This document shows positions 8,641-59,155 of a stretch of DNA of 59,155 bases, piece after piece. The notes under the pieces were generated by a model, which made no database searches, was not told the origin of the DNA, and saw nothing but the letters and a program-made list of their open reading frames with translations. The position numbers and the translations under genes are program-made. Source of the DNA: Candidatus Omnitrophota bacterium (GTDB lineage: Bacteria > Omnitrophota > Gorgyraeia > B26-G9). The stretch spans positions 1 through 59,155 of the forward strand of contig JAHITY010000005.1 in NCBI GenBank assembly GCA_018817165.1, in the 5' to 3' direction. How positions within the stretch are numbered: position 1 is the first letter of the stretch; each line of letters starts with the position of its first letter.

Positions 8641-9522
8641 ATGAGCAAGGCATTATCATCTATTGAATTAAAAAATGTTAAGTTTTTTAGAAGAGGAAAA
8701 GTAAGAGAAGTATACGATCTTGGCGATAATCTATTGATAATATCTACGGATCGAGTTTCCTGTTTTGATGTTATATTGCCAACGGCAATTCCGGAAAAAG
8801 GCAGGTTGCTTACTGAAATTTCTAAATTCTGGTTTGAGTTTACCCGAGATATTGTGTCTAATCATTTGGTCAGCACTGATGTCAATGATTATCCCCAAGA
8901 ATTAGCTGAATATAAAGATCTGCTTGCGGGAAGAAGTATGCTGGTAAAAAAAGCCAAGCCTTTGCCGGTTGAATGTATTGTCCGAGGGTATATTTCCGGG
9001 TCAGGATGGAAAGATTATCAGAAAACTGGCTCAATTTGCGGAATAAAACTGCCGCAAGGATTGCGGGAATCAGATAAGTTGCCGGAAGTTATTTTTACTC
9101 CTTCGACAAAAGCCGAAGTCGGACATGATGAAAATGTTTCTCAGGATTATATAGAGCAGCTGATCGGTAAAGAAATTACTGATATAATAAAAGAGTTGAG
9201 TATTGCGGTTTATACCAAGGCGCGTGATTATGCGGAAAAAAGAGGTATTATTATTGCTGATACTAAATTTGAATTTGGGGTTATTGATAATAAAATTATT
9301 CTTATAGATGAAGTGCTTACTCCTGATTCATCCCGCTTCTGGCCAAAAGATAAATATCAGCCAGGAAAATCACAGCCAAGTTTTGATAAGCAGTTTGTTA
9401 GAGATTATTTAGAGACTCTTGAATGGGATAAAACTCCTCCCGGGCCTCAATTGCCGGATGAGATTGTTGAAAAGACAACAGAAAAATATCAGCAGGCAGT
9501 AAATATTTTGATTGAAAAATGA
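8641..9522 (+). CDS. purC: phosphoribosylaminoimidazole-succinocarboxamide (SAICAR) synthase
   Basis: [36 protein letters not shown] motifs. Confidence 0.92.
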
Positions 9523-46046: not shown

Positions 46047-47258
46047 ATGAAGGGAGCTTTATTTAAAGACCAGATTTTATCTGATAGAGAGAGGAAAAAT
46101 CTCGATATTCTTGAAGTAGTTCGCCGTTATGGACCAGTGACTCGTACAGAAATATCAAGAATTACGAAATATAATATAGTTACTGTTTCAAACTATGTTA
46201 ATAATTATATAAAGAAAGATCTTGTCGTGGAAAAGGGTTTGGATATTTCAAGCGGTGGAAGAAAGCCTACTTTAGTTGAACTTAATTCGAAAAACTGCTT
46301 TGTTATTGGAATTGATATCGGGCCGGATCATATAATTGCCACGCTTACTGATCTTTCATTAAATATGATTACCAAAGTTCATAAACAGCGCCCGGAAGAA
46401 TCAATGGAAGATGTTGTCAGCAAATCTATAGAATTGATTTATGAAATAATTGAAAAATCTCAGATTGAAGCAAAAAAAATAAAAGGTTTGGGAATTGGGA
46501 TTTCCGGGATTATTGACGCGAAAGCCGGAACAGTTAGGGATACTGATCCTGTGCGCGGGAAAACAGCGGCAAGTTATATTTCAATTAAGAATTTAATTGA
46601 AAGAGAATTTGGCATTCCGACTTTTGTCGGTAATGATGCTACTGTAGCTGCTTTTGGGGAGAAAAGAATCGGGCTTGACGCGGAAATCGAAAATGTATTA
46701 TACATGTTTTCCGACGTTGGCTGCGGAATTATTATTAAAGGTGAAATTTACGCGGGAGCTGGCGGTAGTGCTGGTGAAATGCAGCTTAATACGTCTAGTG
46801 AAGATGATGATTTCACCAAAGATCTGGGATTATTTCGCCCGGGAAGCATAAATTTAGGGATTGTAGAATCAGGTAAGGCAGTAGTTAGAGCAGGAAAGAG
46901 TGAAAAGCTTAAAGAGCTTTGCGAGGGTAATCCGGACAATATTACTTCGGCTATTCTGATTGAAGCTGCTCGTCAAAATGATCAAGAATCAATTAAAATG
47001 CTGGAAAAAGCCGGGCTTAATCTGGGAGTAAGAATTGCTTATTTGATTAATTTATTTAATCCGGAAATTGTTATATTGGGCGGGGGGATGGAGCGAGCCG
47101 GAGACTTGATTCTTGAGCCAATTAAAAGAATGGTTCGTCGACTGGCTTTTGAAGAGCCGGCCAGTATGGTCAGGATAATTCCTTCTCGATTGGGAGAAAA
47201 CGCGGTTTCTTTGGGAGCGGCAAGTTTAGTAATTCGTGAGATTTTTATTCATGCTTAG
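46047..47258 (+). CDS. ROK-family transcriptional regulator / sugar kinase
   Basis: N-terminal winged-HTH (GPVTRTEISRITKYNIVTVSNYV), then the ROK sugar-kinase fold (GIDIGPD, GNDATVAAFGE, ILGGG). Confidence 0.75.
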   Translation: MKGALFKDQILSDRERKNLDILEVVRRYGPVTRTEISRITKYNIVTVSNYVNNYIKKDLVVEKGLDISSGGRKPTLVELNSKNCFVIGIDIGPDHIIATLTDLSLNMITKVHKQRPEESMEDVVSKSIELIYEIIEKSQIEAKKIKGLGIGISGIIDAKAGTVRDTDPVRGKTAASYISIKNLIEREFGIPTFVGNDATVAAFGEKRIGLDAEIENVLYMFSDVGCGIIIKGEIYAGAGGSAGEMQLNTSSEDDDFTKDLGLFRPGSINLGIVESGKAVVRAGKSEKLKELCEGNPDNITSAILIEAARQNDQESIKMLEKAGLNLGVRIAYLINLFNPEIVILGGGMERAGDLILEPIKRMVRRLAFEEPASMVRIIPSRLGENAVSLGAASLVIREIFIHA

Positions 47259-47415: not shown

Positions 47416-47610
47416 ATGGATAAAGAACTTAAGTTTATGAAAACAGCAGCGTTGATTTTTAAGGTCTTATCCTGGTTTTTTGTTGCGTTTTTTATTTTCG
47501 TGGCGATAGTTACTTTGCTGGGATTTGCAGATAATACTCCGCGAATTGGAAGTGTTGTATTTATAATTGGAGGAGCTTGGTTTTTTCTTGTTTTTTTACA
47601 GTATCAGTAA
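47416..47610 (+). CDS. small membrane protein, apparently truncated in TM2; the -1 frame continues to 47729
   Basis: SD ggaggt before ATG 47416. The stop falls inside a hydrophobic helix right after a T7 run; the -1 frame is open for 43 more codons. Confidence 0.5.
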   Translation: MDKELKFMKTAALIFKVLSWFFVAFFIFVAIVTLLGFADNTPRIGSVVFIIGGAWFFLVFLQYQ

Positions 47611-47756
47611 GCTTGAAGCTTATCGCTGATATTTCTGAAAATTCTCAGAATCAGGAAGAATCAGTACGAAAATTAAGCATTAAGCTTGATAAATTGGTTT
47701 CCTTACTCGAAGGAAAGCCTTTGGCTTAATATATTAAAATAAAACTTGTTAAAGCC

Positions 47757-47785
47757 TTGACAAACTATTGCATGGATGCTATACT
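47757..47785 (+). promoter_or_regulatory. sigma70-type promoter of the giant-gene locus
   Basis: TTGACA 47757-47762, 17-nt spacer, TATACT 47780-47785; about 290 nt upstream of the first ORF. Confidence 0.6.
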
Positions 47786-47834
47786 TTAAACATAAGAAAA
47801 CAATTTATAAAGTTTCAAAAAGTAAATTGTTTAT

Positions 47835-48055
47835 CCGAAAAGGCAAACCTGCTGAAAAGTGGGGACGTCTCGATCCTTTAATAAATGGGTCGTGACCGTG
47901 AATCCGAACGAAGTGAGTGGTTCACGGCAAAGCTACGGGTCTAAAGCAAAAGCAAGGATCGCCGAGCGCACCGATAACTTAATGCGACGATATGAGCTAT
48001 GATAGCCGAGCTACCGGAGTGTACGAATAAGTATACTTTGAGTGCGGTTTTTTTT
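47835..48055 (+). promoter_or_regulatory. structured 5' leader, candidate c-di-GMP-I (GEMM-I)-like riboswitch with terminator-like T8 run
   Basis: ggcaaacc-tgct-gaaa-agtg-gggacg (47842-47867) resembles the GEMM-I GNRA hairpin. Also acggcaaagc (47924-47933), caccgata (47969-47976), several hairpins and a T8 run at 48048-48055. Confidence 0.35.
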
Positions 48056-48073
48056 ATGTAAAGTGAGGATCTG

Positions 48074-48550
48074 ATGAAAAAAAGTTTCTGGTTTAAGATC
48101 ATTACGATTATAATAATCCAGGCAATTTTGCTTACCCAAGTAGAATTTGCTTTGGCATCTACATTCAGTAGTAAAGATCTTTGCCGGGAAGCTGCTTTAA
48201 AATATCAGAAAATAACCAGCAGAACAATCAGTTTGATATTTGGAATTGGTTGTTTGCAATTAAATTCCAGATCACGCCAATTAGATAAGCTGTTTAGTTT
48301 ACTTACCAGTGACAGTTTTAAGCTAGCAGAAAATGTATTAGCAAGTAAATCACATAACACTAGTAAAGACATTTATAAAGTTTTTGCTTTAACTGTTTTT
48401 AATTGTAATACAGTTAATAATCAATATGTTGCTTTAATTATAAATAAAGCTCAAGCTGCTGTTTGTTGGATGTCGGGAACTCAGGAATCCAGAGGTCCTC
48501 CAATGATTACAAAAAATATTGAATCAAATTTTAATAGCCGAATTGTTTAG
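48074..48550 (+). CDS. small anchored or secreted protein sharing the N-terminal WFKII motif with the giant ORF
   Basis: SD gtgagga before ATG; N-terminus KKSFWFKIITIIIIQAILLTQVEFALA. Confidence 0.55.
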   Translation: MKKSFWFKIITIIIIQAILLTQVEFALASTFSSKDLCREAALKYQKITSRTISLIFGIGCLQLNSRSRQLDKLFSLLTSDSFKLAENVLASKSHNTSKDIYKVFALTVFNCNTVNNQYVALIINKAQAAVCWMSGTQESRGPPMITKNIESNFNSRIV

Positions 48551-48596
48551 TTTAGCAATTCGGCTTTTTCTTTTTATCTTTAAGGGAGGTGTGGTT

Positions 48597-48941
48597 ATGG
48601 ATGAGAGACGCAGGTTTGAAAGAAATGGTGTTGAGTGTCCTTTACAAATTCAGGCAGTAGAAGCAGCGCAGTACATGATTAGAAATTCATTTTGCAATAA
48701 TGTTAGTCCAGTGGGCATGTCAATAACAACTTTTGATTTTTACCCGGTTAATGGAAAAGTGCATTTGAATTTACTTTCCAATACATTGACTAGCATGGTA
48801 GAAGCAATTGGCAGGGTTGTTTGGGTAAGAGAAATGCCGCATCAGAAAAGATTTAAAGTGGGTATAGAATTTGAGGATCCTAGTGAGAGTTTAATGCAAA
48901 AAATAAAAGCATTGATTTCTAAAAAATCAGAGAGGCAGTAA
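48597..48941 (+). CDS. PilZ-domain protein (c-di-GMP receptor)
   Basis: RRRFER (RRxxxR) followed ~25 aa later by NVSPVG (D/NxSxxG); SD agggagg upstream of ATG 48597. Confidence 0.75.
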   Translation: MDERRRFERNGVECPLQIQAVEAAQYMIRNSFCNNVSPVGMSITTFDFYPVNGKVHLNLLSNTLTSMVEAIGRVVWVREMPHQKRFKVGIEFEDPSESLMQKIKALISKKSERQ

Positions 48942-48943
48942 AC

Positions 48944-49582
48944 ATGAATTATTGCAAATTACCAAGCCATATTATTAAAAGTTTTATATTGCTATTTATA
49001 TTTATATTATTTGGTTTAATTATAAACCGGCTGGGGATTTGTCAAATGGAGAAAATAGATGGTTCAAAAGACCAACAGCAGAAAGCAACATTAACCGAAA
49101 ATAGTTCCGTCAATGTAGTTCCTTATACAAAGGGTGCGGCAGCTTCACCTGCTGGATCATCAATTACTCGGGGAGCAAAACTTGAACAAACGGTTAAGGG
49201 TTTAAATGACGCGGGATATTCATTAGATGAAGTTACTGTAATTTTAAAAAATGATAAAAATGATGCTTCAACTGTAAGCATCGCATGTTTAAAACAGGGG
49301 TTTAATGGACAGCAGATTTATAAATCTTTATTAAAAGCCGGCTATTCAAAAAAAAGTGCTGACTTGGCAGTGCCTTTATCAATCAGGCCGGAGATTCAGA
49401 TTTTGGGCATATCAACAAATTATAATGAAGCGATAGATTCATCATTAGCGGGGAAAAATAATAAAGTTTCTCTATCGGTCTCGGAAAGTGTAATGCAAGT
49501 TCCGGTGTCTGTTGGAGTGACTTTTAATGGATTAAGTAATTGGAATTCATTTCAGGATAAGAGATTTTCAAGTGAAAGGTAG
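48944..49582 (+). CDS. membrane-anchored or secreted protein with 14-residue helical repeats
   Basis: N-terminal hydrophobic segment; repeats TVKGLNDAGYS / LDEVTVILKND / VSIACLKQGFN / GQQIYKSLLKAGYS. Confidence 0.6.
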   Translation: MNYCKLPSHIIKSFILLFIFILFGLIINRLGICQMEKIDGSKDQQQKATLTENSSVNVVPYTKGAAASPAGSSITRGAKLEQTVKGLNDAGYSLDEVTVILKNDKNDASTVSIACLKQGFNGQQIYKSLLKAGYSKKSADLAVPLSIRPEIQILGISTNYNEAIDSSLAGKNNKVSLSVSESVMQVPVSVGVTFNGLSNWNSFQDKRFSSER

Positions 49583-49673
49583 GTATTAAAATGGTTATTA
49601 AAACAAATATTTACGAAATTATAATTATTCTTTTTATCAGTTGATTCAATTTAAAACCTAAAAGGAGGTATTT

Positions 49674-50993
49674 GTGATGAAGAAAAAAATTTTAATAAGT
49701 ATGATAATGATGATTAGTTTTGTTTGTATTTTCTCCGGGGAGGCTAACAGCCAAATTATAGGCAGAAAAACTGATGGCTCTGAATCGGAGGGTCTCCAAA
49801 AATGGATCCTGAAATTGTCCAATAGCTTAGGGGTCAGCTCAAGGCCTAACGTTGTTGCTGTATCAAGTGATGATACCGCGGTAACTGCTGTTCAGAGCGC
49901 GAATGAAGAAACAGCGCTCACTCCTATTCAAACCGCGACATCTGTTGCTTCTGGTTTAATTGCTTCCGGGACAATTGATAAATCTGTTGTTAAAGCAACA
50001 TTGATGAGTTATGGGTATGGAGAAACTGAAGCAGAAATCGCTTTTACAAAAGCAAGTACAAATAATGTTTTAGATAATATGATGGTTGTTCCGGTTGTTG
50101 ATAAGATAACAATATCGCAGGAATCTACTATGTCAACACTTGCTCCTGGAAATAGAGTTAAGCAAGGATTAAAGCCTCAATCAAAGTTTCAAAAGGGCAG
50201 GATCGCTAATTATATGAAAGATCCTAAGCAAACTGTTAGGCAGGATGAAATCAATACAACAACTGAGATGCTGGATGAAGGATATACTGTTGTTCAGGTT
50301 GCGCAAGGTTTCGCTGCTAATGGCTATACTTCTGCTAAAACTGCCGCGATATTTCAAGCGTCGGGGATTAGCGCAAAGGATGCTTATAACGCTTTAAGCA
50401 GTATGGGGATTGGTGAGGGAAAAGGATCAATCCTAAAGTCATGGGCTGCGGTTTTTAAACGTTTTGGTAGTAATGTAATGATTAAAGACCGACAAGAAAC
50501 TCAAAAACAGGAGGCGATTAAATCAACAGTAAATGATCTTGCCTCAGCCGGCTATGATGTCACAGAAGTATTAGGTGTAGTTGTGCAGGATTTAAAAGAT
50601 ACAGGAATGACAGCACAGCAGACAAACGATTTTTTAATTGAAAAAGTAGCTGACGGTACAGGAAAGCCAATAGCTAATTTCAGGAATGCTGGCAATATTT
50701 CTTTAAGTTCAATTGTAGGCGTAATTCAAGGCAGAAAAAATGGTGGATCTGTCTCAATGACTTCTTATGGTCAGGGAGAAATAGCATTAGCATCAGCAAT
50801 GATTAAAGCCGGCTATTCAACATCAGAAGTAGCGTCTTCATTTAAAACAGGATCGTATTCCTATACTAACGCGGATACGCAAAAGATACTATCTCAAACA
50901 AATATATCCAACCCGGCAAGTCCGGATACAACAACTAATAATAATACTCAAGAAGATTTGCTTAAGCGTAATACGCAAGCATTACCGATTTAA
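49674..50993 (+). CDS. secreted protein with 14-residue helical repeats
   Basis: SD aaaggagg; Sec signal KKKILISMIMMISFVCIFSGEANS; repeats such as EMLDEGYT VVQVAQGFAANGYT SAKTAAIFQASGIS AKDAYNALSSMGIG. Confidence 0.65.
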   Translation: MMKKKILISMIMMISFVCIFSGEANSQIIGRKTDGSESEGLQKWILKLSNSLGVSSRPNVVAVSSDDTAVTAVQSANEETALTPIQTATSVASGLIASGTIDKSVVKATLMSYGYGETEAEIAFTKASTNNVLDNMMVVPVVDKITISQESTMSTLAPGNRVKQGLKPQSKFQKGRIANYMKDPKQTVRQDEINTTTEMLDEGYTVVQVAQGFAANGYTSAKTAAIFQASGISAKDAYNALSSMGIGEGKGSILKSWAAVFKRFGSNVMIKDRQETQKQEAIKSTVNDLASAGYDVTEVLGVVVQDLKDTGMTAQQTNDFLIEKVADGTGKPIANFRNAGNISLSSIVGVIQGRKNGGSVSMTSYGQGEIALASAMIKAGYSTSEVASSFKTGSYSYTNADTQKILSQTNISNPASPDTTTNNNTQEDLLKRNTQALPI

Positions 50994-51022
50994 TATATTA
51001 AATATAAGGGGGAGGTCAAATC

Positions 51023-54000
51023 ATGTATGACCAAACAGGAAAACTGTGGTTTAAAATCATCGCGTTTATTGTGCTGGAAGCATTTCTATTTACAATTGCT
51101 GATGTTTCTTGGGCAGCTAATTATCGCGATCAGCGCGGCTCGCAGCAAATGGCGCTTGATTCTCAGAAAAATAAAAAAGAGAAAGATAATGTATCGGCTG
51201 ATGCTCTGAGCAATCAGTTGGTGCTTACCCAGCCGGCAATGCCTTATATGGGTTTTGGTCAAATTACCCCTCAAGGACAACAGGGATTAGAATCAATATC
51301 TTTAATTGATACAACGATTTCTGGTCTTTCAATTGCGGGTAATGATTTATCCGATATTTTTACAACGCTTAAGAGTTCGGGATGTTCAGTCAGTGAAGCT
51401 GGCTTTGGCGCGATGCGGCAAGGTTTTGCTAAAAAAGAAATATATCATGCCTTGATCAGCGCGGGATATGATAAAGATGAAGTTAAAACATTGCTGGGCA
51501 GTTTACTGAAAATGGAATCAGAAACAAAAAAACAAGATGAAGCAGCTGTTCAAACAAAGACCGGACCTCCCCAAGAACAGTCGGAACAGGATAAGACTCA
51601 GCTTAATCAAAAAAAGGCAATATTTGAAATCCCCAGTGTAACTGACCTTCCGATTGAAAAAGATGTGACAAAAATTGTAGAAAAAACAGTTCAACAAGGC
51701 GCAGTGCTTCGCCAAACAGTTGAATTTGTTCGTTTAATGATAAATGAAGGAAAACGCGGTAAAGAGCTTATAAAAATTCTTAAAAAAGCTGGACTAAGCA
51801 ATGAAAGAATCACTACAGCGCTCTCCCAATTAGGCTTTAATCTTAAAGATATCATAACTATATTAAAAGATTCAAATATTAGCTGCACGGATATAGTGCA
51901 GGCAATATATAATTCGCAAGTTAACTACAGTGATAAAGACATTTATACCGCATTATTAAAAGCCGGATTTTCCGATCAAGAAATAATTAATGCTTTAAGA
52001 AACGTGGGGATGAATGCCGCAGATATTTTAAAACTGACAACCGAGCTTGGCCGAAGTATGACGCAAGTTGCTGACGCAATGGTAAAAGCAGGATTTAATG
52101 TCGCTGAAATTGCCACTGCCTATGTGCTTAAGGCTATGCAGTGGACATGGGATAATTCAGTTAATGTTATAAATTGCGCGGTCAAAGCTTTTGACGCTTT
52201 TCTTAACAATGTCGGAAGGAAATTCTCTTCAAAACAAGATTTAGCATATGAGCTGATAGTTGATGATATTCTAGCAACCGGAGAAGTCCTGATTCAGAAT
52301 CAAGATGTTATGACCTCAATGGTCGCGATTAAGAATGTTGCCCAGAATCATGGTATTGATTTAGAGGGATATAATCTCAGCCTTAATAGTTTGCTGGAAC
52401 TTGAGGGTGTATCAGTAGTGCATTTGGATGGAGATCACTGGGTTACTTTAGTTGGTATTGATGGTGATCAGGTTACGATTATTGATAATGGCACAGAAGA
52501 AGTTATTTCACTTAGTGAATTTCAGATTCGCTGGGATGGAAATGTTTTAGCTTTTAATCAGCAGGAAATTAGTCAGGATAAATTGATTGATCTGCAGATG
52601 CGCGAGATTCGTGGCGGCAGGGGATTGCTGAGTGTTCTTACTTTAGGTCTTAGTGATGTAGTAGAAAAAGTAGTAGACGTCGTAGTTGATGTGGTTAAGA
52701 AGGTGTGGGATGTTATTAAGGTAGTTGTCATCGTTGTTGTCGCTGCGGTATTAACTTATGTAACTGCCGGAGCTTTAGCTCCGGTTTTTGTCGCGGCTTT
52801 TGCAGCTACAACAGCTGTCGCTGTTGCTGCTTGTACTGCATTGGCAGCTGCTGTTGCCAGCTTTGCCGTAACTTTTTGTATGGGAGTACTTCAAGGACAA
52901 TCATTTGGTGAGGCATTTAAAAGCGCGCTTATTGCTGGTGTGGTTGCCGGGATTGCTTCGGGTATTAGTTCATATGCTAATTTTAGTTCACCAACAGGGA
53001 CCCCAACCACAACAGGAGGTACTTCTTTTGGTGGGTCTGAAGCAGCAGTATCTGGTACAACCGGAGGTGCAGGAGCAGGTGCAGGAGCAGGTGTGGGTGC
53101 AGCAACTGGTTCAGTAGCTAGTTCAGCTGGTGGCACAATCTTAGGTGTAAGCACGGTTTCAATTGCTAATGCAGCTATAAGCGCGGTTAAACAAACTGTT
53201 GTGAGTTATGCCTTGACTAAGTTAATGGATGCAGCAGGGATTGATAATGTTTATTTACGAGCAGGGATTGTTGGCGCGGCCGGAGCTTGGGCAGGTAGTT
53301 CTGCTGGAACACTGAGTGTTGAAAATGGCAGTTGGAGCATGGCAACTGGGGAATTAATGACCTCGGAAATTGCCAAGCAAATGCTCACCGGAGCAGCAAC
53401 TCAAATTTCCATGGAAGCAATCAAACAACAAGGTTATAAGCAGGGATGGGATCCATTACTCACTGATGGTTTATCTTTGACTGTCGGTACTTTTGCCAAT
53501 ATCGCAACCAGTTCAGCATTAGACATATATAATGGCAAAGAAATAAACACAACAAAATTTACTAATCCGGCTGGTGATCGTTTTGATACTAATTTTTCTA
53601 ATTTATTTGTACAGAACTTTAAGTCATCTGTTGGAGAACTAATGGGCGCGTTAGCATCCAAAGCAGTTGACCGGATATGCCTTCAAAATAATGTCGATCC
53701 AATATTGTCTGCCGGATTATCTTCGATGAGTACAAGTCTTTTTACCAGTTTGACCAACTTTGCAGTAAATGATAGTGATTTTGGGATGACTGATATTGGT
53801 AATGCTTTGAGAAAAGGGGCTGGCTCTGCCATGGATGCAGGGTATAAAGATTATTTGATCAGAGATTTAGGTTATACTCAAGCCGAAGCCACTCAGACGG
53901 CATATGGAACTTCTCTTGTATTCAATATGTTCAGTCAAAATTTAGAAAAGGGAACATCCCCAACTCTTGAAAGCACAATCCAGTCACTTTTCAATGATGG

Positions 54001-57000
54001 GGTCAAGAGCCTTGGTTTTACCAATGAATATAATGGTTCATCATATAATCAGACAAAGTACTTAGATACATTTGATTCAGAAATAGATACTCTGGAATAT
54101 ATGATGTATGCCAGTGATGCAGGAATTACTCTTGATGATAATGGGGTATATCGTAATTCTGATGGCAGTGAAAACACTTATATGAATCGCAATAAAGCGA
54201 GAACAGAATATAATCAGTATTGGAAAGAGAAAAACCCGGAAGTTTTTGATCGTTCCTCTGGTACTGCTACTGCATCAACCGGAAATTTAAGTTTCGCTGA
54301 TGCTTGGACAAAAACTCTGGATACGAGAAATCTGAGCAATATGGCCACTCAATCAGCGGCTAATTTTAGTTCAGGGGTAACTAATTTGCAGACTTCTCTT
54401 GATGTTATCAGTATTAATGCCGCGACGATGAACACCGGAGTAGCGGCGAGTTTTGGTTATAATGGGGTTATTCAATTATCCCTTGCACAGGGAACAAATG
54501 TAAACCCAGCACAAGCAATGCAAAATCTGCTTAATTATGGCCAAAATGCGACAAAGATATATGGCGCTAATGGTAAACAAATCGTCGGGCTTATGTTTGA
54601 AAATTCTGATGCTTTCTTTCGCAATAAGGCATCAGCTTATCAGGCTGTAGATACAAGTACTCCTTGGATTAGAAATCAAAGAGTATATACCAGTGATACA
54701 GCTTATAAAGATGTCGGAGTCCAGGCAAATAGTATTAAAGATTTAGTGTCAAATCAAAATCTTAGTCTGGTTTCCTACAGTACAAATAGTTTTCAAACTG
54801 ATTTGCTGTCCATGGCTGCAACAAGTTCATTTGCTGTTAATGGAAGTGTTGTTTATGATCAGTTAAACAATATTTTTATGCTCCAGAATGCGACATTTAC
54901 CTCAGATAGTAAACAGGAAACCGTTGATTTTTCAACTAAGCTGAGCAATGGAGATAAAGTTTATTTTAGCGTTCAAAGCGGTAATGGGTTTAATAATGCT
55001 GTATTAAAAACCAGCGCGGCAAAAGACGCCGCGGTATATACAACCCGGGTAGACGGTGTAGCCAAAGAATTAAAGATCGGCGATATTACTTCCAAGGCCA
55101 GCGATAAGGTTTCTTCATTAGAAGTCGCGCTTACTGTCAGCGCCAGTGGAAATTTGAATTTAGAAAGTGCATCATTAAAAGATGCGAATAAAATATTAGC
55201 TTCTGAAAATAAGCTTGCAGCAGAGATTATTAACTTGCCTTCAGGCTGTATTGTGGGAAATACAACCTTAGAGTTAGCAAATTCTACAAATGGCTTGGCA
55301 GTGACTGCGGTAGAAAATATTGATTCTAATCGGAGCATTAAGTATTCCGGAGAAGACGCGAAAATAACCAGTAAAGCCCAGTTTGTTTATAACCGAGATG
55401 GGAAAATAACCTCAATTGTAAATAAGGATATTTCTGGTAAGAATCTTGGTGTAGATATTCAGACTCAAAAAGGAAGTATTACCCTTTTTGATAATCAGAT
55501 TTCTTTTGCTAATCAAAATAATTCTTTATTAACAAATCTAGGTTCTTTTTTTGGTATGAGCAGCGCGGAAGAGTTTACAATAATTAAAGGAGAAGCATTA
55601 GCGGCTACTAATTATCAAATAATTAATTCTGTGGAACAACAGCAATCTGGAGCAGCCGGCGGAGCCGGAGAAGCCCCTGGTCTTAATAAAATAATCCTGA
55701 TTGGGGATGCTAATGGCAATCAATACATTCAACAAGGTTCGATGTTTACAATCGAAAATAATAATTGGGCGGTTAAAGATAATGATGTAATTCATAATAA
55801 TAGCGGTAAAACAATAACCGTTAGCGGCAAAGCATTTGAAAACGGTGAAATAGCTGCTGTTCATAAGGGTAATATTTTTAAAGCAACAGTTGCTGATGAT
55901 GTCAAGGACCGGGAAAATATTGAATATAAACTTGATGTTAGTGGTTTTAATCTTAATCCCTTGAATATTATACAAGTTGCAGATACAGTGGTTTCTCTGC
56001 CGATCGGAGTAATGAATGCAAACGATATTTATCTTACTGACTCCGGGGCATTAACAATTACTCAAAATATTGCTTTGCAGGGACCTGATGTAAAGGGATT
56101 ATACATATCAGCTGCAAATACTACTTTTACTCTTAACTCAGATGGCAATCAGGCTTTAAAAACTGAGTTCAGTCAGATTGGATTAAGCGGGACTTTGGAA
56201 AATCAAGGCGCGGCTGGTCTAAAAGTCGGCAGTAATCAGTTGATTGGGAATACCCAAGTAGTAGATAATAATCTTTCGACTACAACTGCTGAAAGTAATA
56301 AGATAAAAATCAATGTGACTGAGGATGCCTCTTATTATCAAGGCGGGCAAGTAACCCTGACCAATAGCGGCTTGGTTTATAAACCATCAGATATTCTGGA
56401 AATCACAGGATTGGGAAGCAGTGCTCCGAACTTTAATGCTAATACCGAACTTTACAGCGGATCCTTTGTCAGCGTGGGAAATCTTAAGCTCACCACAGAT
56501 GGCAGTTATAAAATAACTCAAAACAGTGTAATGACCACAAACGCAGACAGCAAAATTCTGATCACACTACTAAATCAATCTGGACAAAATGTCGATACTA
56601 TCATGAATCTCCAAGAAGTCAGCATTCCAGAAACCAATAAAACAGTAGAGTATTCTACTCCTGATTTTCAGAATTTTAGTGAAGCAACCGCGGGAATGAG
56701 TTTTAGTACACAGGGAATTGAGTTTACAATTCAGGATAAAGGATTAAATAAATTTGAAGCACGCAGTCAGCCAATATCTGCTGTTGCCGCCATTGAGTTG
56801 AAAAATAAAGATTCGATTTCCAGTAAGATTGATTTCAAAGAAAATGTCGAGTTGACAATCAGCCCATTGGGCAGCATTGTTACCGCGGATAATGTAACTT
56901 TTAATCAGGTTAATACTCTAAAATCCGGAGCAGAAGTAAAAGTTAATCAGGACAAGTCGGTTGAGATCGTTAGCGGCCAAATTAATTTGGCGAAAGCTGA

Positions 57001-59155
57001 TGCGCTTAAAGGTCAAAATAGTGTAGCCACAATCCAGCCTGATAAAAATAAAGAGCAGAATAAAAAAGATAATGATACAAAACCAGTATATGTCGGAGAA
57101 GCTAAAATTGATCTTTTAGGAAATAATAAATATGACTTATATGGAGATCTGAGTTTTAATAAAGATTCAGGGGTTTATTTAGCAGATAATACAAAAGTTA
57201 CTATTAACAATTTAGCGAAAGATGGCAAGGATTTTGTTAATATTGGTAATACTCGGGCTGTTGCAGGAACTTTTGGCGTAAGCCAGGGACAGATAACCGC
57301 GATAGCAGGCGGCGCGAAGCTTTTAGAGCATATTACCAAAAGCGGTGAATATATAACTTTAGAATATAAAGGAACAAAACAAGTATCCGGAAAATCAATA
57401 GATCAAGGCTGGAAGATCAATGCCAGTCAGGCAGCAATTGACAGCAAAGAATCCTGGTCTGGAACAATTCAAGGGCAGTCAGTAAATTATAGTTTAGCCA
57501 AAAAGAACAATGAGACAATCATCCAGATCAATAATGGCGCTGGAGTAGAATTAAAAAATCAAACCCTTATTGGGTATGGGAATCAAGAGTTAAAAAATGT
57601 AACAGTATTCGCCACTCAGAAATTAGCTAATGGAAATTTTGTTTATACGACTACAGATGAAAAAGCAATTGGCTTTCAGCAATTACAGAGTACATCAGCT
57701 GGTGGACCAGCCAGTCAGATGCTGGGCAAAACAATTGTTAGTATTTCCGATTCTTTTGATAATGGGCAGAGGATAAGAACATATGGCGCTCAGACAAATG
57801 GCGCATTTTGCTTAACTTTTACTGCTGATAAGGAACTGAAAGGAATCAATGTAGCAGAACAATTGGCCGGCAGTTCATTGGAAATAGTTGGCAGTGGAGC
57901 AAAAGTCAATGGTGAGACATTTTTAAAGGGAGCAATAAGTTATAACTGGAACGGCAAAGAGATCGCCAGCAGTTATAGCAAGGGCACAACACTATTAGAA
58001 GCAAATACGAGTTATGGTCAGGTAACTCGAGAATATTTAGGAGCAGACAGTTGGAAGTTTAATGCCAGCCAGTCGGCAATAGATAATAAAGCAGTATGGA
58101 AAGGAACATATAGAAATCAGTCTGTGGACTATAATGTAGCTGATAAAAATGGTGAGACCATAATCCAGATAAATAAAGGATTAGGCCTAAAAGTAGAGAA
58201 TCAGACTATTGTTGGTTATGGCAAACAGGAATTAAAAAATGTAGATGTAACTGTAACCCAGAAATTAGCCAATGGACAGTTTGTTTATACAACAACTGAT
58301 AAAGACGCGATTGGCTTACAGCAATTACAGAGCACATCAGCCGGCGGCGCGGCTAGTCAGATGCAAGGCCGGACAATTGCCAGTGTTTCTGATTCTTTAG
58401 TCGGTGGTAAAACAGTCAGAACCTATGGGGAGACTTCAGTAAAAAAAGATGGAATTAATTTTGCTCTGACTTTTACCGCAGATCAATATCTTAGTACTGC
58501 GGTTAATGTTTCAGAGCAATTAGCTGGAAGTTATTTAGAGATCGCGGGTAGCGGAGCAAAAATCCAAGGCAAAGATATAATCAGCGGATCAATTGATTAT
58601 GCGGCTAATGACAAGGGAGTGGTTGTCGGAACTTTTAGTCAAGGCTCTGAACAATATCAGGGGACAATAAAAGGTACTAATCTCAAGGTAATCAGTGTAT
58701 ATAATGGCACAGTCAATGGTGTGGACAAAGGTTGGACAATGCAGTATCAAGGCATTGGGGTGCTCAAAGAAGGCGCGGCTAAATTTGATGTCCAAATAAA
58801 TGGCAAAACATTTGAAGCAACTTTAGTCAGTAGTCAGGAAGGGTATTCTGCGCAGATTAATCAAAATGTTGGTATGAATAAGGATTTCGTGGATTCCGAA
58901 GGCGGCAAACATGGTGATGTAGAACTATTCGCCACCCAGCTTTTAGCCAGTGGTAATGTTGAATACATGGCAAAAGATAAGGGTAAGGGCGATTGGAAAC
59001 AGGAAATCACAGCAGGTGTTGCCGGTGCGCAGATAAAATATGAAGGTGCTAATAATCTGAGCGTTAAAGATCAGATAAATGCTGATGGCAAAACAATCAG
59101 AACATATACTGCAGCTAATGATGGTAATTTCCAAATAGTATTTGTCGCGGACAGA
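51023..59155 (+). CDS. giant surface-protein gene, 5' part only (2,711 codons, no stop before the window end)
   Basis: ATG 51023 preceded by SD aagggggagg (51006-51015). I read the frame codon by codon to base 59155 and found no stop; only short antisense or out-of-frame ORFs appear in the track here. Confidence 0.9.
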   Translation, partial: MYDQTGKLWFKIIAFIVLEAFLFTIADVSWAANYRDQRGSQQMALDSQKNKKEKDNVSADALSNQLVLTQPAMPYMGFGQITPQGQQGLESISLIDTTISGLSIAGNDLSDIFTTLKSSGCSVSEAGFGAMRQGFAKKEIYHALISAGYDKDEVKTLLGSLLKMESETKKQDEAAVQTKTGPPQEQSEQDKTQLNQKKAIFEIPSVTDLPIEKDVTKIVEKTVQQGAVLRQTVEFVRLMINEGKRGKELIKILKKAGLSNERITTALSQLGFNLKDIITILKDSNISCTDIVQAIYNSQVNYSDKDIYTALLKAGFSDQEIINALRNVGMNAADILKLTTELGRSMTQVADAMVKAGFNVAEIATAYVLKAMQWTWDNSVNVINCAVKAFDAFLNNVGRKFSSKQDLAYELIVDDILATGEVLIQNQDVMTSMVAIKNVAQNHGIDLEGYNLSLNSLLELEGVSVVHLDGDHWVTLVGIDGDQVTIIDNGTEEVISLSEFQIRWDGNVLAFNQQEISQDKLIDLQMREIRGGRGLLSVLTLGLSDVVEKVVDVVVDVVKKVWDVIKVVVIVVVAAVLTYVTAGALAPVFVAAFAATTAVAVAACTALAAAVASFAVTFCMGVLQGQSFGEAFKSALIAGVVAGIASGISSYANFSSPTGTPTTTGGTSFGGSEAAVSGTTGGAGAGAGAGVGAATGSVASSAGGTILGVSTVSIANAAISAVKQTVVSYALTKLMDAAGIDNVYLRAGIVGAAGAWAGSSAGTLSVENGSWSMATGELMTSEIAKQMLTGAATQISMEAIKQQGYKQGWDPLLTDGLSLTVGTFANIATSSALDIYNGKEINTTKFTNPAGDRFDTNFSNLFVQNFKSSVGELMGALASKAVDRICLQNNVDPILSAGLSSMSTSLFTSLTNFAVNDSDFGMTDIGNALRKGAGSAMDAGYKDYLIRDLGYTQAEATQTAYGTSLVFNMFSQNLEKGTSPTLESTIQSLFNDGVKSLGFTNEYNGSSYNQTKYLDTFDSEIDTLEYMMYASDAGITLDDNGVYRNSDGSENTYMNRNKARTEYNQYWKEKNPEVFDRSSGTATASTGNLSFADAWTKTLDTRNLSNMATQSAANFSSGVTNLQTSLDVISINAATMNTGVAASFGYNGVIQLSLAQGTNVNPAQAMQNLLNYGQNATKIYGANGKQIVGLMFENSDAFFRNKASAYQAVDTSTPWIRNQRVYTSDTAYKDVGVQANSIKDLVSNQNLSLVSYSTNSFQTDLLSMAATSSFAVNGSVVYDQLNNIFMLQNATFTSDSKQETVDFSTKLSNGDKVYFSVQSGNGFNNAVLKTSAAKDAAVYTTRVDGVAKELKIGDITSKASDKVSSLEVALTVSASGNLNLESASLKDANKILASENKLAAEIINLPSGCIVGNTTLELANSTNGLAVTAVENIDSNRSIKYSGEDAKITSKAQFVYNRDGKITSIVNKDISGKNLGVDIQTQKGSITLFDNQISFANQNNSLLTNLGSFFGMSSAEEFTIIKGEALAATNYQIINSVEQQQSGAAGGAGEAPGLNKIILIGDANGNQYIQQGSMFTIENNNWAVKDNDVIHNNSGKTITVSGKAFENGEIAAVHKGNIFKATVADDVKDRENIEYKLDVSGFNLNPLNIIQVADTVVSLPIGVMNANDIYLTDSGALTITQNIALQGPDVKGLYISAANTTFTLNSDGNQALKTEFSQIGLSGTLENQGAAGLKVGSNQLIGNTQVVDNNLSTTTAESNKIKINVTEDASYYQGGQVTLTNSGLVYKPSDILEITGLGSSAPNFNANTELYSGSFVSVGNLKLTTDGSYKITQNSVMTTNADSKILITLLNQSGQNVDTIMNLQEVSIPETNKTVEYSTPDFQNFSEATAGMSFSTQGIEFTIQDKGLNKFEARSQPISAVAAIELKNKDSISSKIDFKENVELTISPLGSIVTADNVTFNQVNTLKSGAEVKVNQDKSVEIVSGQINLAKADALKGQNSVATIQPDKNKEQNKKDNDTKPVYVGEAKIDLLGNNKYDLYGDLSFNKDSGVYLADNTKVTINNLAKDGKDFVNIGNTRAVAGTFGVSQGQITAIAGGAKLLEHITKSGEYITLEYKGTKQVSGKSIDQGWKINASQAAIDSKESWSGTIQGQSVNYSLAKKNNETIIQINNGAGVELKNQTLIGYGNQELKNVTVFATQKLANGNFVYTTTDEKAIGFQQLQSTSAGGPASQMLGKTIVSISDSFDNGQRIRTYGAQTNGAFCLTFTADKELKGINVAEQLAGSSLEIVGSGAKVNGETFLKGAISYNWNGKEIASSYSKGTTLLEANTSYGQVTREYLGADSWKFNASQSAIDNKAVWKGTYRNQSVDYNVADKNGETIIQINKGLGLKVENQTIVGYGKQELKNVDVTVTQKLANGQFVYTTTDKDAIGLQQLQSTSAGGAASQMQGRTIASVSDSLVGGKTVRTYGETSVKKDGINFALTFTADQYLSTAVNVSEQLAGSYLEIAGSGAKIQGKDIISGSIDYAANDKGVVVGTFSQGSEQYQGTIKGTNLKVISVYNGTVNGVDKGWTMQYQGIGVLKEGAAKFDVQINGKTFEATLVSSQEGYSAQINQNVGMNKDFVDSEGGKHGDVELFATQLLASGNVEYMAKDKGKGDWKQEITAGVAGAQIKYEGANNLSVKDQINADGKTIRTYTAANDGNFQIVFVADR
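51758..52132 (+). repeat. about nine contiguous 14-residue repeats within the giant ORF (aa 246-370)
   Basis: GKELIKILKKAGLS NERITTALSQLGFN LKDIITILKDSNIS ... DKDIYTALLKAGFS DQEIINALRNVGMN AADILKLTTELGRS MTQVADAMVKAGFN VAEIATAYVLKA. Confidence 0.8.
52136..52558 (+). other. C39-like papain-fold cysteine peptidase domain inside the giant ORF (aa 372-512)
   Basis: VINC(385)AVKAF ... VVHLDGDH(472)WVTLVGIDGDQVTIID(488)NG ... EFQIRWDGNVLAF. Cys-His spacing is 87 and His-Asp spacing is 16, as in bacteriocin-processing C39 domains. Confidence 0.6.
52715..52972 (+). other. cluster of ~3 predicted transmembrane helices inside the giant ORF (aa 565-650)
   Basis: IKVVVIVVVAAVLTYVTAGALAPVFVAAFAATTAVAVAACTALAAAVASFAVTFCMGVL...ALIAGVVAGIASGI. 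Confidence 0.6.
57340..59155 (+). repeat. tandem 214-227-aa repeats at the distal end of the visible giant ORF (at least 3 copies, continuing off the window)
   Basis: Equivalent Trp codons at 57410, 58052 and 58733. Shared blocks: WK(I/F)NASQ.AID, ETIIQIN, GYG.QELKNV, TQKLANG.FVYTTTD, LQQLQSTSAGG.ASQM, RTYG, LTFTAD, EQLAGS.LEI.GSGAK. Confidence 0.85.

Follow-up and report, generated by a model that had tools for sequence, protein, structure and literature searches.

A candidate c-di-GMP-responsive locus for a giant, probably self-cleaving protein in an Omnitrophota bacterium

Near the end of a 59,155-nt stretch of DNA from an Omnitrophota bacterium (the window), five co-directional genes lie 3' of a promoter and a 282-nt leader, with intergenic gaps of 46, 2, 91 and 29 nt and a strong ribosome-binding site ahead of each gene. 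The gene arrangement matches the original prediction, and every element named there was found at the position given for it. The promoter and the genes are as follows.

47757..47785, + strand: sigma-70-type promoter, TTGACA, 17-nt spacer, TGcTATACT (extended -10), 11 of 12 positions matched
48074..48550, + strand: g1, 158 aa, open reading frame, first gene after the predicted riboswitch, with N-terminal signal or anchor FWFKII...LTQxEFALA
48597..48941, + strand: stand-alone PilZ protein, 114 aa, candidate c-di-GMP receptor (Pfam PF07238)
48944..49582, + strand: g3, 212 aa, membrane-anchored by a hydrophobic segment, with 14-residue helix-turn repeats (AGYSxxEV type)
49677..50993, + strand: g4, 438 aa, signal-peptide protein with at least six of the same 14-residue repeats as g3
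51023..59155, + strand: giant open reading frame (ORF), at least 2711 aa, cut by the contig end

The annotated upstream genes are of housekeeping character, as had been described (NagA, GlmS, PEPCK, PurC, Maf, RadA, IspD/F and CysS), and Omnitrophota/PVC genomes share the order cysS, ROK, small membrane gene, leader, g1, (PilZ, g3, g4), giant. The five genes had been expected to be conserved together, which holds for g1 and the giant gene, always found together in related loci, but not for PilZ, g3 and g4, which occur in most of these loci and are missing from two of them, L008 and L009, and are therefore dispensable. Recovery of more of the contig had also been envisaged; however, the source contig (59,177 nt) hardly exceeds the window, so the giant ORF cannot be extended.

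The promoter is the top-scoring site of a 5-kb scan, and a TTGACA and TGnTATAMT pair occupies the same relative location in 9/9 orthologous leaders. Promoter-like sites as a class were not enriched in the region scanned (14 found against 15.2 expected), so that this conservation is the stronger argument; together with the 11/12 match it bears out the canonical promoter proposed earlier. The leader that follows, from about 47792 to 48073, has an MFE of -76.9 kcal/mol (z = -2.5, with 2 of 200 shuffles folding equally well), in agreement with the structured leader of about 280 nt that had been predicted, and contains the following features.

47797..47833, + strand: 5' stem-loop or inverted repeat at the transcript start, AACAATTTAT...ATAAATTGTT, in the MFE and centroid folds
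47832..48018, + strand: c-di-GMP-I (GEMM-I) riboswitch aptamer, expanded form (Rfam RF01051, 39.2 bits)
47867..47926, + strand: two-hairpin insertion lying between the P1b 3' strand (GGGGAC) and the closing G-C pairs of P1a
47956..47978, + strand: conserved motif GGATCGCCGAGCGCACCGATAAC within the extended P2 stem (7 aligned leaders)
48006..48055, + strand: terminator 1 (expression platform of the riboswitch), a stem with the aptamer 3' strand as 5' arm, followed by U8 (ligand-free MFE)

Judged by its sequence, the leader is a c-di-GMP-I (GEMM-I) riboswitch by Rfam class, where only a possible riboswitch had been proposed. The window and six orthologous loci (77.3, 74.9, 62.2, 41.9, 41 and 38.4 bits) score above the RF01051 gathering cut-off of 35 bits, and the leaders of L007 and L008 are sub-threshold yet recognisable at 28 and 24.8 bits, which gives a match in 9/9 leaders. 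The window aptamer stands only 4 bits above the cut-off because of its insertions. It has counterparts of G20, A47 and C92 (G47842, A47929 and C48014) and keeps the GAAA tetraloop and the CUAAAG/UAUGAU receptor, and the RNA core is nearly invariant although g1 drops to about 31% identity. The P1 insertion is present in 12 distinct sequences, always as exactly two adjacent hairpins (z -2.9 to -6.7), the sequences of which are unrelated among the 12 carriers. Furthermore, GGATCGCCGAGCGCACCGATAAC is near-invariant among the seven aligned leaders while g1 identity is 31-37%, and it is rare beyond the lineage, with 4 occurrences in 71 non-g1 metagenome loci; of these four, L080 begins with a divergent g1-like protein. 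An AT-rich box is also conserved among the leaders at the 5' stem-loop.

Alternatively, the expanded aptamer may no longer sense c-di-GMP, and could either bind some other molecule, for instance another cyclic dinucleotide, or persist as a degenerate relic that serves as a constitutive attenuator. The insertion adjoins the pairs that stack beneath the ligand pocket, the Rfam score of the window is marginal, the L008 leader has lost the 5' half of P2, and GEMM-I variant classes with altered specificity exist (Rfam RF03167). Nevertheless, this appears quite improbable, given that all of the key nucleotides, the tetraloop and its receptor are retained, that compact orthologues at the same locus reach 75-77 bits, that the insertion structure is conserved in its 12 carriers, unlike decay, and that a PilZ gene belongs to the same five-gene unit as the aptamer. 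With c-di-GMP as the favoured ligand, terminator 1 would provide the regulatory logic. A terminator-1 hairpin with a U-run is present in the ligand-free MFE of 9/9 leaders (the window and the 8 orthologous ones folded), its 5' arm always being (A)UAGCCGAGCUGCC, and its overlap with the 3' strand of the aptamer predicts an ON switch; that it is ON rather than OFF we infer, since MFE folds differ from co-transcriptional kinetics.

The first gene 3' of the riboswitch is g1 in every related locus, and, as anticipated, it encodes a small WFKII-anchored protein, with FWFKII at the N-terminus. Cross-hits in tblastn with the N-terminus of the giant identify g1 as paralogous to the giant protein over the latter's first ~80 residues, and an RGPP motif is conserved near its C-terminus. 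The end of the gene carries a further RNA element.

48536..48575, + strand: terminator 2 or attenuator, a 12-bp hairpin over the g1 stop codon, followed by a T-run (terminator scan)

This hairpin between g1 and PilZ was absent from the earlier description of the locus. A similar one is kept in 11/11 loci, with stems of 11-13 bp and compensatory changes, and in L013 the reading frame through its arm differs, an indication of selection on the RNA. Given such a hairpin 3' of g1 in all of these loci, the five genes could share one transcript only by read-through of terminator 2, and the single five-gene transcript of the original prediction is doubtful. An extreme form of this view is that the riboswitch controls g1 alone, with an efficient terminator 2 and independent transcription of PilZ, g3, g4 and the giant gene, so that the giant protein would have no RNA-level link to c-di-GMP. 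Terminator 2, with its canonical stem and U-run, looks strong, and a weak promoter-like site is located within the g3-g4 gap (49598-49625), whereas the promoter scan found no such site between 48300 and 48597 of the window. In L008 and L009, moreover, terminator 2 is retained with the giant gene directly after g1, and the ribosome-binding site of the giant gene is located about 30 nt past the U-run, which leaves a promoter no space, and hence giant-gene transcripts must cross terminator 2. As the tight gaps and the invariant gene order also favour co-transcription, control of g1 alone seems unlikely, and partial read-through into the downstream genes is the preferred reading.

Profile searches for each gene, an earlier suggestion, matched the PilZ protein to PF07238 (39.8 bits, cut-off 22.5, E = 5.9e-10) and the giant to PF03412 (C39), but gave no match for g1 in Pfam and NCBIfam, no family match above threshold for g3 in Pfam/NCBIfam, and no Pfam or NCBIfam match for the C-terminal passenger region of the giant, where no domain is recognisable. 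The assignment of the PilZ gene is thereby confirmed, also because its R5xxxR9 and N35xSxxG40 c-di-GMP-binding motifs are intact, and these are conserved in orthologues. The g3 protein resembles the N-terminal module of the giant protein. The g4 gene may start at GTG 49674 or ATG 49677, the ATG being used in the source-contig annotation, and its orthologues, although found in most loci, are variable, being duplicated, absent or uncalled as a separate gene. The 14-residue repeats reported earlier were recovered in g3, g4 and the N-terminal part of the giant.

The giant gene is incomplete in the window, and every checked assembly that reaches its contig end breaks within it; relatives have at least 5354 aa and 6321-7815 aa. 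The parts of the protein present here are as follows.

51035..51115, + strand: N-terminal signal or anchor, KLWFKII...ADVSWA|AN (hydrophobic segment, aa 5-32)
51368..52126, + strand: 14-residue helix-turn repeats in two blocks, aa ~116-163 and ~239-368 (period 14)
52115..52582, + strand: C39 cysteine peptidase domain, aa ~365-520, C385/H472/D488 (Pfam PF03412)
52583..52618, + strand: double-glycine motif LIDLQMREIRGG, ending in G531-G532, predicted self-cleavage site
52712..52891, + strand: hydrophobic Ala/Val/Gly-rich cluster, aa 564-623, then a Gly/Ala/Ser/Thr-rich linker (hydropathy)
52892..59155, + strand: passenger region of over 2000 aa, with much Asn, Ser, Thr and Gly and almost no Cys (composition)

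The N-terminal signal motif is conserved across the family. A charged linker with KTGPP separates the two repeat blocks, and AF2 models a helical solenoid over aa ~226-346 (pLDDT 76-93). A profile search relates the repeats weakly to the CW_7 cell-wall-binding repeats of Cpl-7 (5i8l, E = 3e-5), and a fold comparison relates them weakly to the EpsAB periplasmic domain; both matches are leads only. The hydrophobic cluster probably forms 2-3 membrane helices. The passenger beyond it shares 30-53% identity among relatives, against 60-84% for the N-terminal module, and it could be periplasmic or membrane-associated instead of on the surface.

The C39-like peptidase and the double-glycine-like motif of the giant, both part of the original prediction, could be substantiated. 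The domain matches PF03412 with 36.8 bits (cut-off 22) over profile positions 45-131 only, and Foldseek relates it to the LahT double-glycine protease (6mpz, probability 1.0); AF2 modelled the region with low confidence, pLDDT being below 50 over most of it. The choice of the catalytic Cys follows family conservation and motif similarity, not a direct alignment to a solved C39 structure. Across 178 domain hits, the triad is conserved as Cys in 101/119 covering positions (Ser in 17), His in 166/175 and Asp/Glu in 157/171. The double-glycine motif is invariant among close homologues, and conservation collapses immediately past the GG. Its family consensus, L-x-D-x-Q-M-x-x-I-R-G-[GAS], with G at -2 (57/58), G, A or S at -1, I at -4, M/L at -7 and Q/E at -8, is the classic leader consensus, situated about 40 residues past the C39 domain. 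The conserved triad, together with a motif at this distance from the domain, suggests that the giant protein probably cuts itself at LxDxQMxxIRGG.

It is conceivable, though rather unlikely, that the C39 domain spares its own chain, either cutting other double-glycine substrates (small secreted peptides, or g1, g3 and g4) or having a non-catalytic binding or chaperone role like the C39-like domain of HlyB, in which case the GG would be a linker. C39 domains usually work in trans on leader peptides. Both options were raised by West-Roberts et al. (2023, bioRxiv 10.1101/2023.11.21.568195); in addition, the replacement of Cys by Ser in some members and the low-confidence model are compatible with them. 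However, most members keep the triad, the leader-consensus motif (-1, -2, -4, -7, -8) lies at a fixed distance past the domain family-wide, the change of conservation at the GG is sharp, and no matching motif was seen in g1, g3 and g4 when these were read by eye rather than scanned systematically, all of which favours self-cleavage.

Taken as a whole, we interpret the locus as an expression unit under c-di-GMP control that encodes a giant protein of the envelope or surface, a reading drawn from sequence to which we assign a probability of roughly 0.6. The sigma-70 promoter would start a transcript that runs into the c-di-GMP-I riboswitch, and without ligand the aptamer 3' strand would pair into the intrinsic terminator and halt transcription ahead of g1, whereas bound c-di-GMP would let the aptamer keep this strand and RNA polymerase continue. 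The first and most strongly expressed product would be g1, a small exported paralogue of the giant's N-terminus, and terminator 2 may pass just a fraction of transcripts to the genes for PilZ, both repeat proteins and the giant. The giant protein, presumably exported via its N-terminal signal and bearing the helical-repeat module and an intact C39 peptidase, would then be cut at LxDxQMxxIRGG, which would free the conserved N-terminal module of ~530 residues from the membrane-anchored, fast-evolving passenger, and PilZ, where present, may add a c-di-GMP input at the protein level. A giant, probably self-cleaving surface protein typical of the phylum is here encoded behind an RNA switch from the class responding to c-di-GMP, the "settle down and attach" signal, and this arrangement offers a first testable handle on the control of such giant genes.

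Giant proteins of Omnitrophota with an N-terminal C39 domain near signal peptides in full-length members, mostly extracellular domains, neighbouring pilZ genes, a proposed cleavage and a c-di-GMP link have been reported (West-Roberts et al. 2023), and a PF03412 architecture cluster also appears among giant proteins in bioRxiv 10.64898/2026.06.07.730766. The original description of the locus as undescribed was therefore too strong, and the giant ORF of the window belongs to this 'Archaeovorin'-type family, with which it shares the phylum, an N-terminal signal followed by C39, membrane segments, a passenger that mostly defies annotation and is predicted to be extracellular, pilZ neighbours and the proposed ties to c-di-GMP and proteolytic processing. 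Unlike in that type, PilZ is encoded upstream instead of downstream, an upstream type II secretion-like locus is missing, and the first 2.7-4.3 kaa contain no SecA_DEAD or enzyme domain. A term search found the literal words riboswitch and c-di-GMP in neither preprint, and no term for a double-glycine motif or self-cleavage in West-Roberts et al. (2023). The parts of the locus are of known kinds. In the papers checked, no riboswitch link, double terminator or in-cis cleavage site was found.

Switches of the c-di-GMP-I ON type precede adhesin genes in Bacillus thuringiensis (Bc2-cap, PMC4933901), and Clostridioides difficile has riboswitch-controlled adhesins with the ZmpI protease (PMC6200980, PMC6447587, PMC6366702). 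The locus resembles both in that the 5' UTR of a gene for a large surface protein holds a GEMM-I aptamer with a terminator-based platform, and in the predicted promotion of expression by c-di-GMP, and it resembles C. difficile also in having an adhesin-trimming protease in the same regulon. It differs in phylum, in the two-hairpin insertion and conserved P2 extension of its aptamer, in the second terminator behind a small leader-paralogue gene, and in combining protease and presumed substrate in one polypeptide.

Like peptidase-containing ABC transporters (PCATs: ComA, LahT, PCAT1), the giant has a C39 fold with a Cys/His/Asp triad, and in its motif, as in the double-glycine leader peptides of PCATs, positions -4 and -7 are hydrophobic and positions -2 and -1 read G-[GAS]; unlike PCATs, it is devoid of an ABC transporter part, and about 40 residues of a single chain separate its peptidase from the motif. 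Since the domain sits behind a signal peptide, it is probably periplasmic and not cytoplasmic as in PCATs. The earlier comparison with Pseudomonas LapA/LapG/LapD holds only as an analogy, at the level of general logic, in that c-di-GMP and a cysteine protease are combined with the removal of an N-terminal module from a very large adhesin. The protease LapG is a separate protein of transglutaminase-like type with a di-alanine cleavage site, LapD is a GGDEF-EAL inner-membrane receptor, and export of LapA relies on a type I system, whereas Pfam/NCBIfam searches found neither a LapG-type protease nor a LapD-type receptor among the five genes, and no type I secretion system was seen adjoining the locus. 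In the manner predicted for the giant, MARTX toxins use an in-cis cysteine protease to cut their own very large polypeptide after export, but the protease family is unrelated and cleavage motif and biology are different, the MARTX CPD being a C80 peptidase that is activated by InsP6.

The window spans nearly all of a 59,177-nt metagenomic contig (ENA ERZ27247128 k141_517993), and the locus occupies its last part, from a promoter to a giant open reading frame (ORF) in which the contig ends. The original prediction placed a promoter, a structured leader and five tightly spaced genes here, downstream of housekeeping DNA. All of these elements were found in the window, and the annotated upstream genes (NagA, GlmS, PEPCK, PurC, Maf, RadA, IspD/F and CysS) are indeed housekeeping. 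The five genes, encoding a 158-aa protein (g1), a PilZ protein, two 14-residue-repeat proteins (g3 and g4) and the giant protein, run in the same direction, are separated by 46, 2, 91 and 29 nt and have strong ribosome-binding sites. The 282-nt leader has a more stable fold than shuffled sequences (z = -2.5), and the -35 and extended -10 elements of the promoter are kept in nine of nine leaders. The observation is confirmed and its interpretation is partly supported, and the locus is best described as known kinds of parts in a new combination.

Nucleotide features of the locus, all on the forward strand
47757-47785: promoter TTGACA-17-TGcTATACT, 11 of 12 positions matching
47797-47833: inverted repeat, or 5' stem-loop, directly after the predicted transcription start
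47832-48018: match to Rfam model RF01051 (GEMM-I, c-di-GMP-I)
47867-47926: two-hairpin insertion in the aptamer
48006-48055: terminator 1, hairpin and U-run
48536-48575: terminator 2, 12-bp hairpin and T-run, overlapping the g1 stop codon

Related loci in Omnitrophota and PVC genomes (handles beginning with L) were found via homologues of the giant protein N-terminus, and the homologues and syntenic loci belong nearly all to Omnitrophota MAGs. The possible riboswitch of the original prediction gains substance from this comparison, since the leader scores 39.2 bits on RF01051, above the gathering score of 35, and an aptamer stands at the same place in all nine loci whose leader is included. The modest score of the window copy is due to two large insertions and not to a poor core.

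Rfam scores of the leader aptamers
L015: RF01051, 77.3 bits
L014: RF01051, 74.9 bits
L009: RF03167 (sister model), 62.2 bits
L013: RF01051, 41.9 bits
L006: RF01051, 41 bits
Window: RF01051, 39.2 bits
L002: RF01051, 38.4 bits
L007: RF03167, 28 bits, below cut-off
L008: RF03167, 24.8 bits, below cut-off

Alignment to the Rfam consensus places the ligand-contact counterparts of the window at G47842, A47929 and C48014, following the numbering of G20, A47 and C92, the c-di-GMP-contacting nucleotides of the Vc2 structure. The GAAA tetraloop at 47854-47857 and the CUAAAG/UAUGAU receptor are both kept, and the P2 half is nearly invariant (77% mean column identity) in loci whose g1 proteins are only 31-37% identical. 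By its score, core nucleotides and coupled platform, the leader is thus a predicted c-di-GMP-I riboswitch. The best match of L009 to RF03167, a model of the GGC variant, does not reflect an A47G change, as L009 reads GCAAAG at this point, like the canonical class. A 21-nt aptamer core was rejected as a marker of the locus because it is a generic GEMM-I core, present in 115 metagenome stretches from many taxa 5' of pilins, PilC-like proteins and other genes, and g1 loci make up about 10 of the 80 listed among these 115.

Compact copies of the aptamer (L014, L015, L009, L020 and others) have a standard P1b hairpin. In the window and 11 other distinct sequences, an insertion of 40-77 nt separates GGGAC from the G-C pairs that close P1a, and each insertion folds into exactly two adjacent hairpins (z from -2.9 to -6.7). 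As the inserted sequences are unrelated and the two hairpins are always formed, the insertion appears to be a conserved structure rather than the result of decay. All family members also have an extended P2 with the conserved motif GATCGCCGRGCGYACCGATAAC, which is nearly invariant at 47956-47978 and occupies the same place in L002, L006, L009, L013, L014 and L015; in L007 it is itself interrupted by another hairpin. The motif is possibly a tertiary contact or a protein-binding site. RNAalifold gave no useful covariation for the P2 domain, with one compensatory pair, which is explained by the near invariance of P2. These findings indicate that a conserved insertion of two hairpins beside the ligand pocket is compatible with the GEMM-I class, which matters for riboswitch structure and also for search models, as the expanded copies score marginally with Rfam or escape it.

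A direction for the switch is suggested by the hairpin and U-run that the ligand-free minimum free energy fold contains in nine of nine leaders. The 5' arm of this terminator 1 is, in every one of them, the aptamer's own 3' strand, (A)UAGCCGAGCUGCC, so aptamer and terminator are mutually exclusive, which leads to the prediction that c-di-GMP turns transcription ON, as in the Bc2-cap riboswitch of B. thuringiensis (PMC4933901). Terminator 2 lies after g1, and its hairpin, with compensatory changes, recurs in all 11 of the 11 loci compared. L013 reads the same nucleotides in another frame, which argues for selection at the RNA level. Where the giant gene directly follows g1, in L008 and L009, the hairpin stands about 30 nt 5' of the giant's ribosome-binding site, so that any giant-gene transcript has to pass through it. 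We read terminator 2 as a putative leaky terminator, which would keep g1 high and the downstream genes low. The original prediction of one five-gene transcript agrees with the tight layout, but a simple transcript of this kind is made less plausible by a terminator after the first gene.

Gene order across the loci is cysS, ROK, small membrane gene, leader, g1, (PilZ, g3, g4) and giant. The expected co-conservation of all five genes holds for g1 and the giant gene, which form the constant pair of the locus, but not for PilZ, g3 and g4, which are absent from L008 and L009. In addition, L002 and L014 carry duplicated g3-like genes, g4 is absent from L013, and in L020 g4 is not called as a separate gene. 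No known domain was found in g1 with Pfam and NCBIfam, and its AF2 model is uninformative (mean pLDDT 40.7, 11 homologues). Over its first ~80 residues g1 is a paralogue of the giant protein's N-terminus (FWFKII...LTQAEFALA and KLWFKII...TIADVSWA, respectively). A conserved GPP motif is also common to g1 (aa ~140-143, 48491-48502) and the N-terminal linker of the giant protein (aa 180-183, 51560-51571), in the forms R-G-P-P in g1, RAPP or TGPP in its orthologues and K-T-G-P-P in the giant.

The second gene, proposed from the start as PilZ, matches PF07238 with 39.8 bits (cut-off 22.5), and both binding motifs, R5-R9 (RxxxR) and N35-V-S-P-V-G40 (NxSxxG), are intact and conserved among orthologues, which makes it a PilZ-domain candidate c-di-GMP receptor. 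The 14-residue repeats ascribed to g3 and g4 are likewise present; both proteins are membrane-anchored or secreted, and their helix-turn repeats are the same as those in the N-terminal module of the giant protein.

The giant ORF encodes at least 2711 aa in the window. The protein of one relative has at least 5354 aa and family representatives have 6321-7815 aa, the related contigs that reach their end all break inside the giant gene, and the two long contigs were covered to 10 kb beyond the match. The sequence present in the window is arranged as follows.

Features of the giant protein
aa 5-32: signal or anchor
aa ~116-163 and ~239-368: 14-residue repeats
aa ~365-520: C39 domain
aa 531-532: GG
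aa 564-623: hydrophobic cluster
beyond aa 623: passenger of more than 2000 residues, N/S/T/G-rich and almost Cys-free

In the AF2 model of the N-terminal module a helical repeat solenoid is confident and the rest is not, the C39 part being poor because the alignment has six sequences. The repeats show a weak profile match to CW_7 cell-wall-binding repeats (5i8l) and a 61-column weak fold match to the EpsAB periplasmic domain of type II secretion. Cell-wall binding by the repeats was not supported by Pfam at E <= 1, and peptidoglycan binding is a hint that serves as a lead only. The passenger of the window and the first 4.3 kaa of two relatives gave no Pfam or NCBIfam match, and self-BLAST of the giant ORF returned no matches.

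The C39-like peptidase and the double-glycine-like motif of the original prediction are both borne out. The domain matches PF03412 with 36.8 bits against 22, covering only profile positions 45-131, and Foldseek, run on a low-confidence model, matches it to LahT (6mpz; probability 1.0). The catalytic residues are C385, H472 and D488, of which C385 was assigned by motif similarity (N-C-A...G-R) and not by direct structural alignment. A word-indexed homologue search with the C39+GG alignment found no matches; an exhaustive HMMER profile search with the same region yielded 349 representative clusters, of which many are very long. Among 178 aligned domains the N-C-A cysteine is Cys in 101 of 119 and Ser in 17 of 119, the catalytic His is kept in 166 of 175, and Asp or Glu occupies the third position in 157 of 171. 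A 'TSM' motif considered as a degenerate catalytic site turned out to be the GTSxxxL motif of C39 domains.

In the same 178 domains, C39 is followed by the tail consensus L-x-D-x-Q-M-x-x-I-R-G-[GAS], which fits the double-glycine leader consensus at -1, -2, -4, -7 and -8. The motif is invariant in close homologues and similarity collapses straight after GG, with identities of 60-84% before it and 30-53% after it. The simplest reading is that the giant protein would cut itself at G532/R533, and the fixed pairing of C39 and double glycine offers a specific, testable cleavage point for a giant-protein family of 349 representative clusters. Some long relatives (P0030, P0032, P0033 and others) carry two or three C39+GG modules in one protein, which would fit polyprotein processing at several sites.

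In contrast to PCATs, in which the peptidase is fused to an ABC transporter, the giant protein has no ABC part: no ABC transmembrane or ATPase domain was found with Pfam and NCBIfam in the 2711 aa of the window or the first 4.3 kaa of two relatives. It therefore carries a C39 domain without being a PCAT. A closer likeness is offered by the Omnitrophota giants of West-Roberts et al. 2023 (bioRxiv 10.1101/2023.11.21.568195), who described N-terminal C39 domains near signal peptides, suggested that these may cut giant proteins, and noted adjoining pilZ genes as well as GGDEF domains inside giants; a 2026 preprint (bioRxiv 10.64898/2026.06.07.730766) reports a PF03412 architecture cluster. The locus matches the former in its Omnitrophota origin, the signal followed by an N-terminal C39 and the very long ORF. 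The 2023 description also includes numerous transmembrane regions, a SecA_DEAD domain and lengths above 30,000 aa. The window part has one hydrophobic cluster and its relatives have more further on; no SecA_DEAD was found in the first 4.3 kaa, and every assembly ends within the gene. The published giants follow a locus resembling type II secretion and are followed by pilZ genes, whereas in the window cysS, ROK and a small membrane gene lie immediately upstream and PilZ precedes the giant gene.

The original prediction also drew an analogy to the Lap system and proposed an undescribed solution. The broad logic is shared, but the parts that define Lap were not found: Pfam and NCBIfam searches of the five products gave neither a LapG-type transglutaminase-like protease nor a LapD GGDEF-EAL receptor, and the annotated genes adjoining the locus include no type I secretion genes. 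Undescribed goes too far, since C39, its proposed cleavage and pilZ are already in West-Roberts et al. 2023. Term searches found no mention of riboswitch or c-di-GMP in that paper or the 2026 preprint, and the former has no word for either a double-glycine motif or self-cleavage. A literature search combining Omnitrophota, c-di-GMP and riboswitch returned only papers on another topic. c-di-GMP riboswitches 5' of adhesin genes are well known (PMC4933901, PMC6200980, PMC6366702). The result is unsurprising in principle. What is new here is the conserved riboswitch link to Omnitrophota giant genes, the expanded aptamer architecture, the two serial terminators around a leader-paralogue gene (g1) and a defined, predicted in-cis cleavage motif.

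These parts may belong to one system of a single Omnitrophota lineage, combining an expanded GEMM-I master ON switch, serial terminators and C39 self-maturation, a joint reading to which we give a probability of roughly 0.35. The expansion would consist of two extra hairpins, forming a multi-way junction, and the conserved P2 loop, and the switch would target very large envelope proteins. The two serial terminators would set g1 high relative to the giant protein; the giant's own C39 would then cut the built-in double-glycine site and free the N-terminal helical-repeat module, which may bind the cell wall. Omnitrophota are uncultured and ultra-small, and giant genes have been proposed to drive their prey attachment and digestion, with neither the switching-on of these genes nor the maturation of their products described in the papers checked. 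If true, the joint reading would provide the first regulatory and maturation pathway for giants implicated in the predatory or host-attached Omnitrophota lifestyle, as well as a structurally new subclass of a well-studied riboswitch. The locus reduces giant-gene control and protein maturation to a 190-nt RNA, two terminators and a ~600-residue fragment, which permits synthetic, culture-free testing and brings an open question within direct experimental reach.

Aptamers of the expanded subtype that have the P2 motif occur only on low-GC contigs, in front of g1 loci or of genes for a second family of large signal-peptide proteins. The two-hairpin insertion, P2 motif and ON-type terminator also occur together in L047, L063, L064 and L093 (also L092). 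Proteins of the second family begin with MNKYIRxYxYLVLVCFIVN, range from 1.2 to at least 2.3 kaa and gave no Pfam domain, and some of their loci share samples with g1 loci. A second family behind the same riboswitch subtype, partly in the same samples, suggests that c-di-GMP riboswitches may control several large envelope proteins in this lineage.

Several leaders show further peculiarities. The inverted repeat after the predicted transcription start of the window reads AACAATTTAT...ATAAATTGTT, other leaders have a related AT-rich, AAGAATTTTAAAAG-like box, and the repeat could be an mRNA-stabilising hairpin or an operator. The L007 leader is ~840 nt long; its peculiarities, at L007 5640-5870 and 6040-6200, are a partly duplicated 5' half of the aptamer and tandem GC-rich units of ~45 nt (GGATGGAACAATCCCGCGTTACGAGTG...), which lie in the interval from terminator 1 to g1 and recur in the one from g1 to PilZ. 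In L008 the aptamer (9339-9429) is without the 5' half of P2 and retains P1b, the 3' strand and the terminator; PilZ, g3 and g4 are likewise missing from this locus, and its aptamer may have degenerated into a switch that is constitutively off or acts as an attenuator.

The ROK protein (46047-47258), a NagC/Mlc-like regulator with an N-terminal HTH, adjoins the giant locus in every genome checked and is 84-98% identical across loci where CysRS is only 48-87% identical, which means that it is unusually strongly conserved. NagA and GlmS are encoded on the same contig (2829-6025). ROK may regulate the giant locus; no ROK operator was identified. Between ROK and the promoter, a small 2-TM gene (47416-47729) is split into overlapping ORFs of 64 and 50 aa. 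L018 and L020 have a single 104-aa gene at this place, compared with which the window lacks 1 nt of a T-run (~47590), through a genuine frameshift or else a mistake in the assembly.
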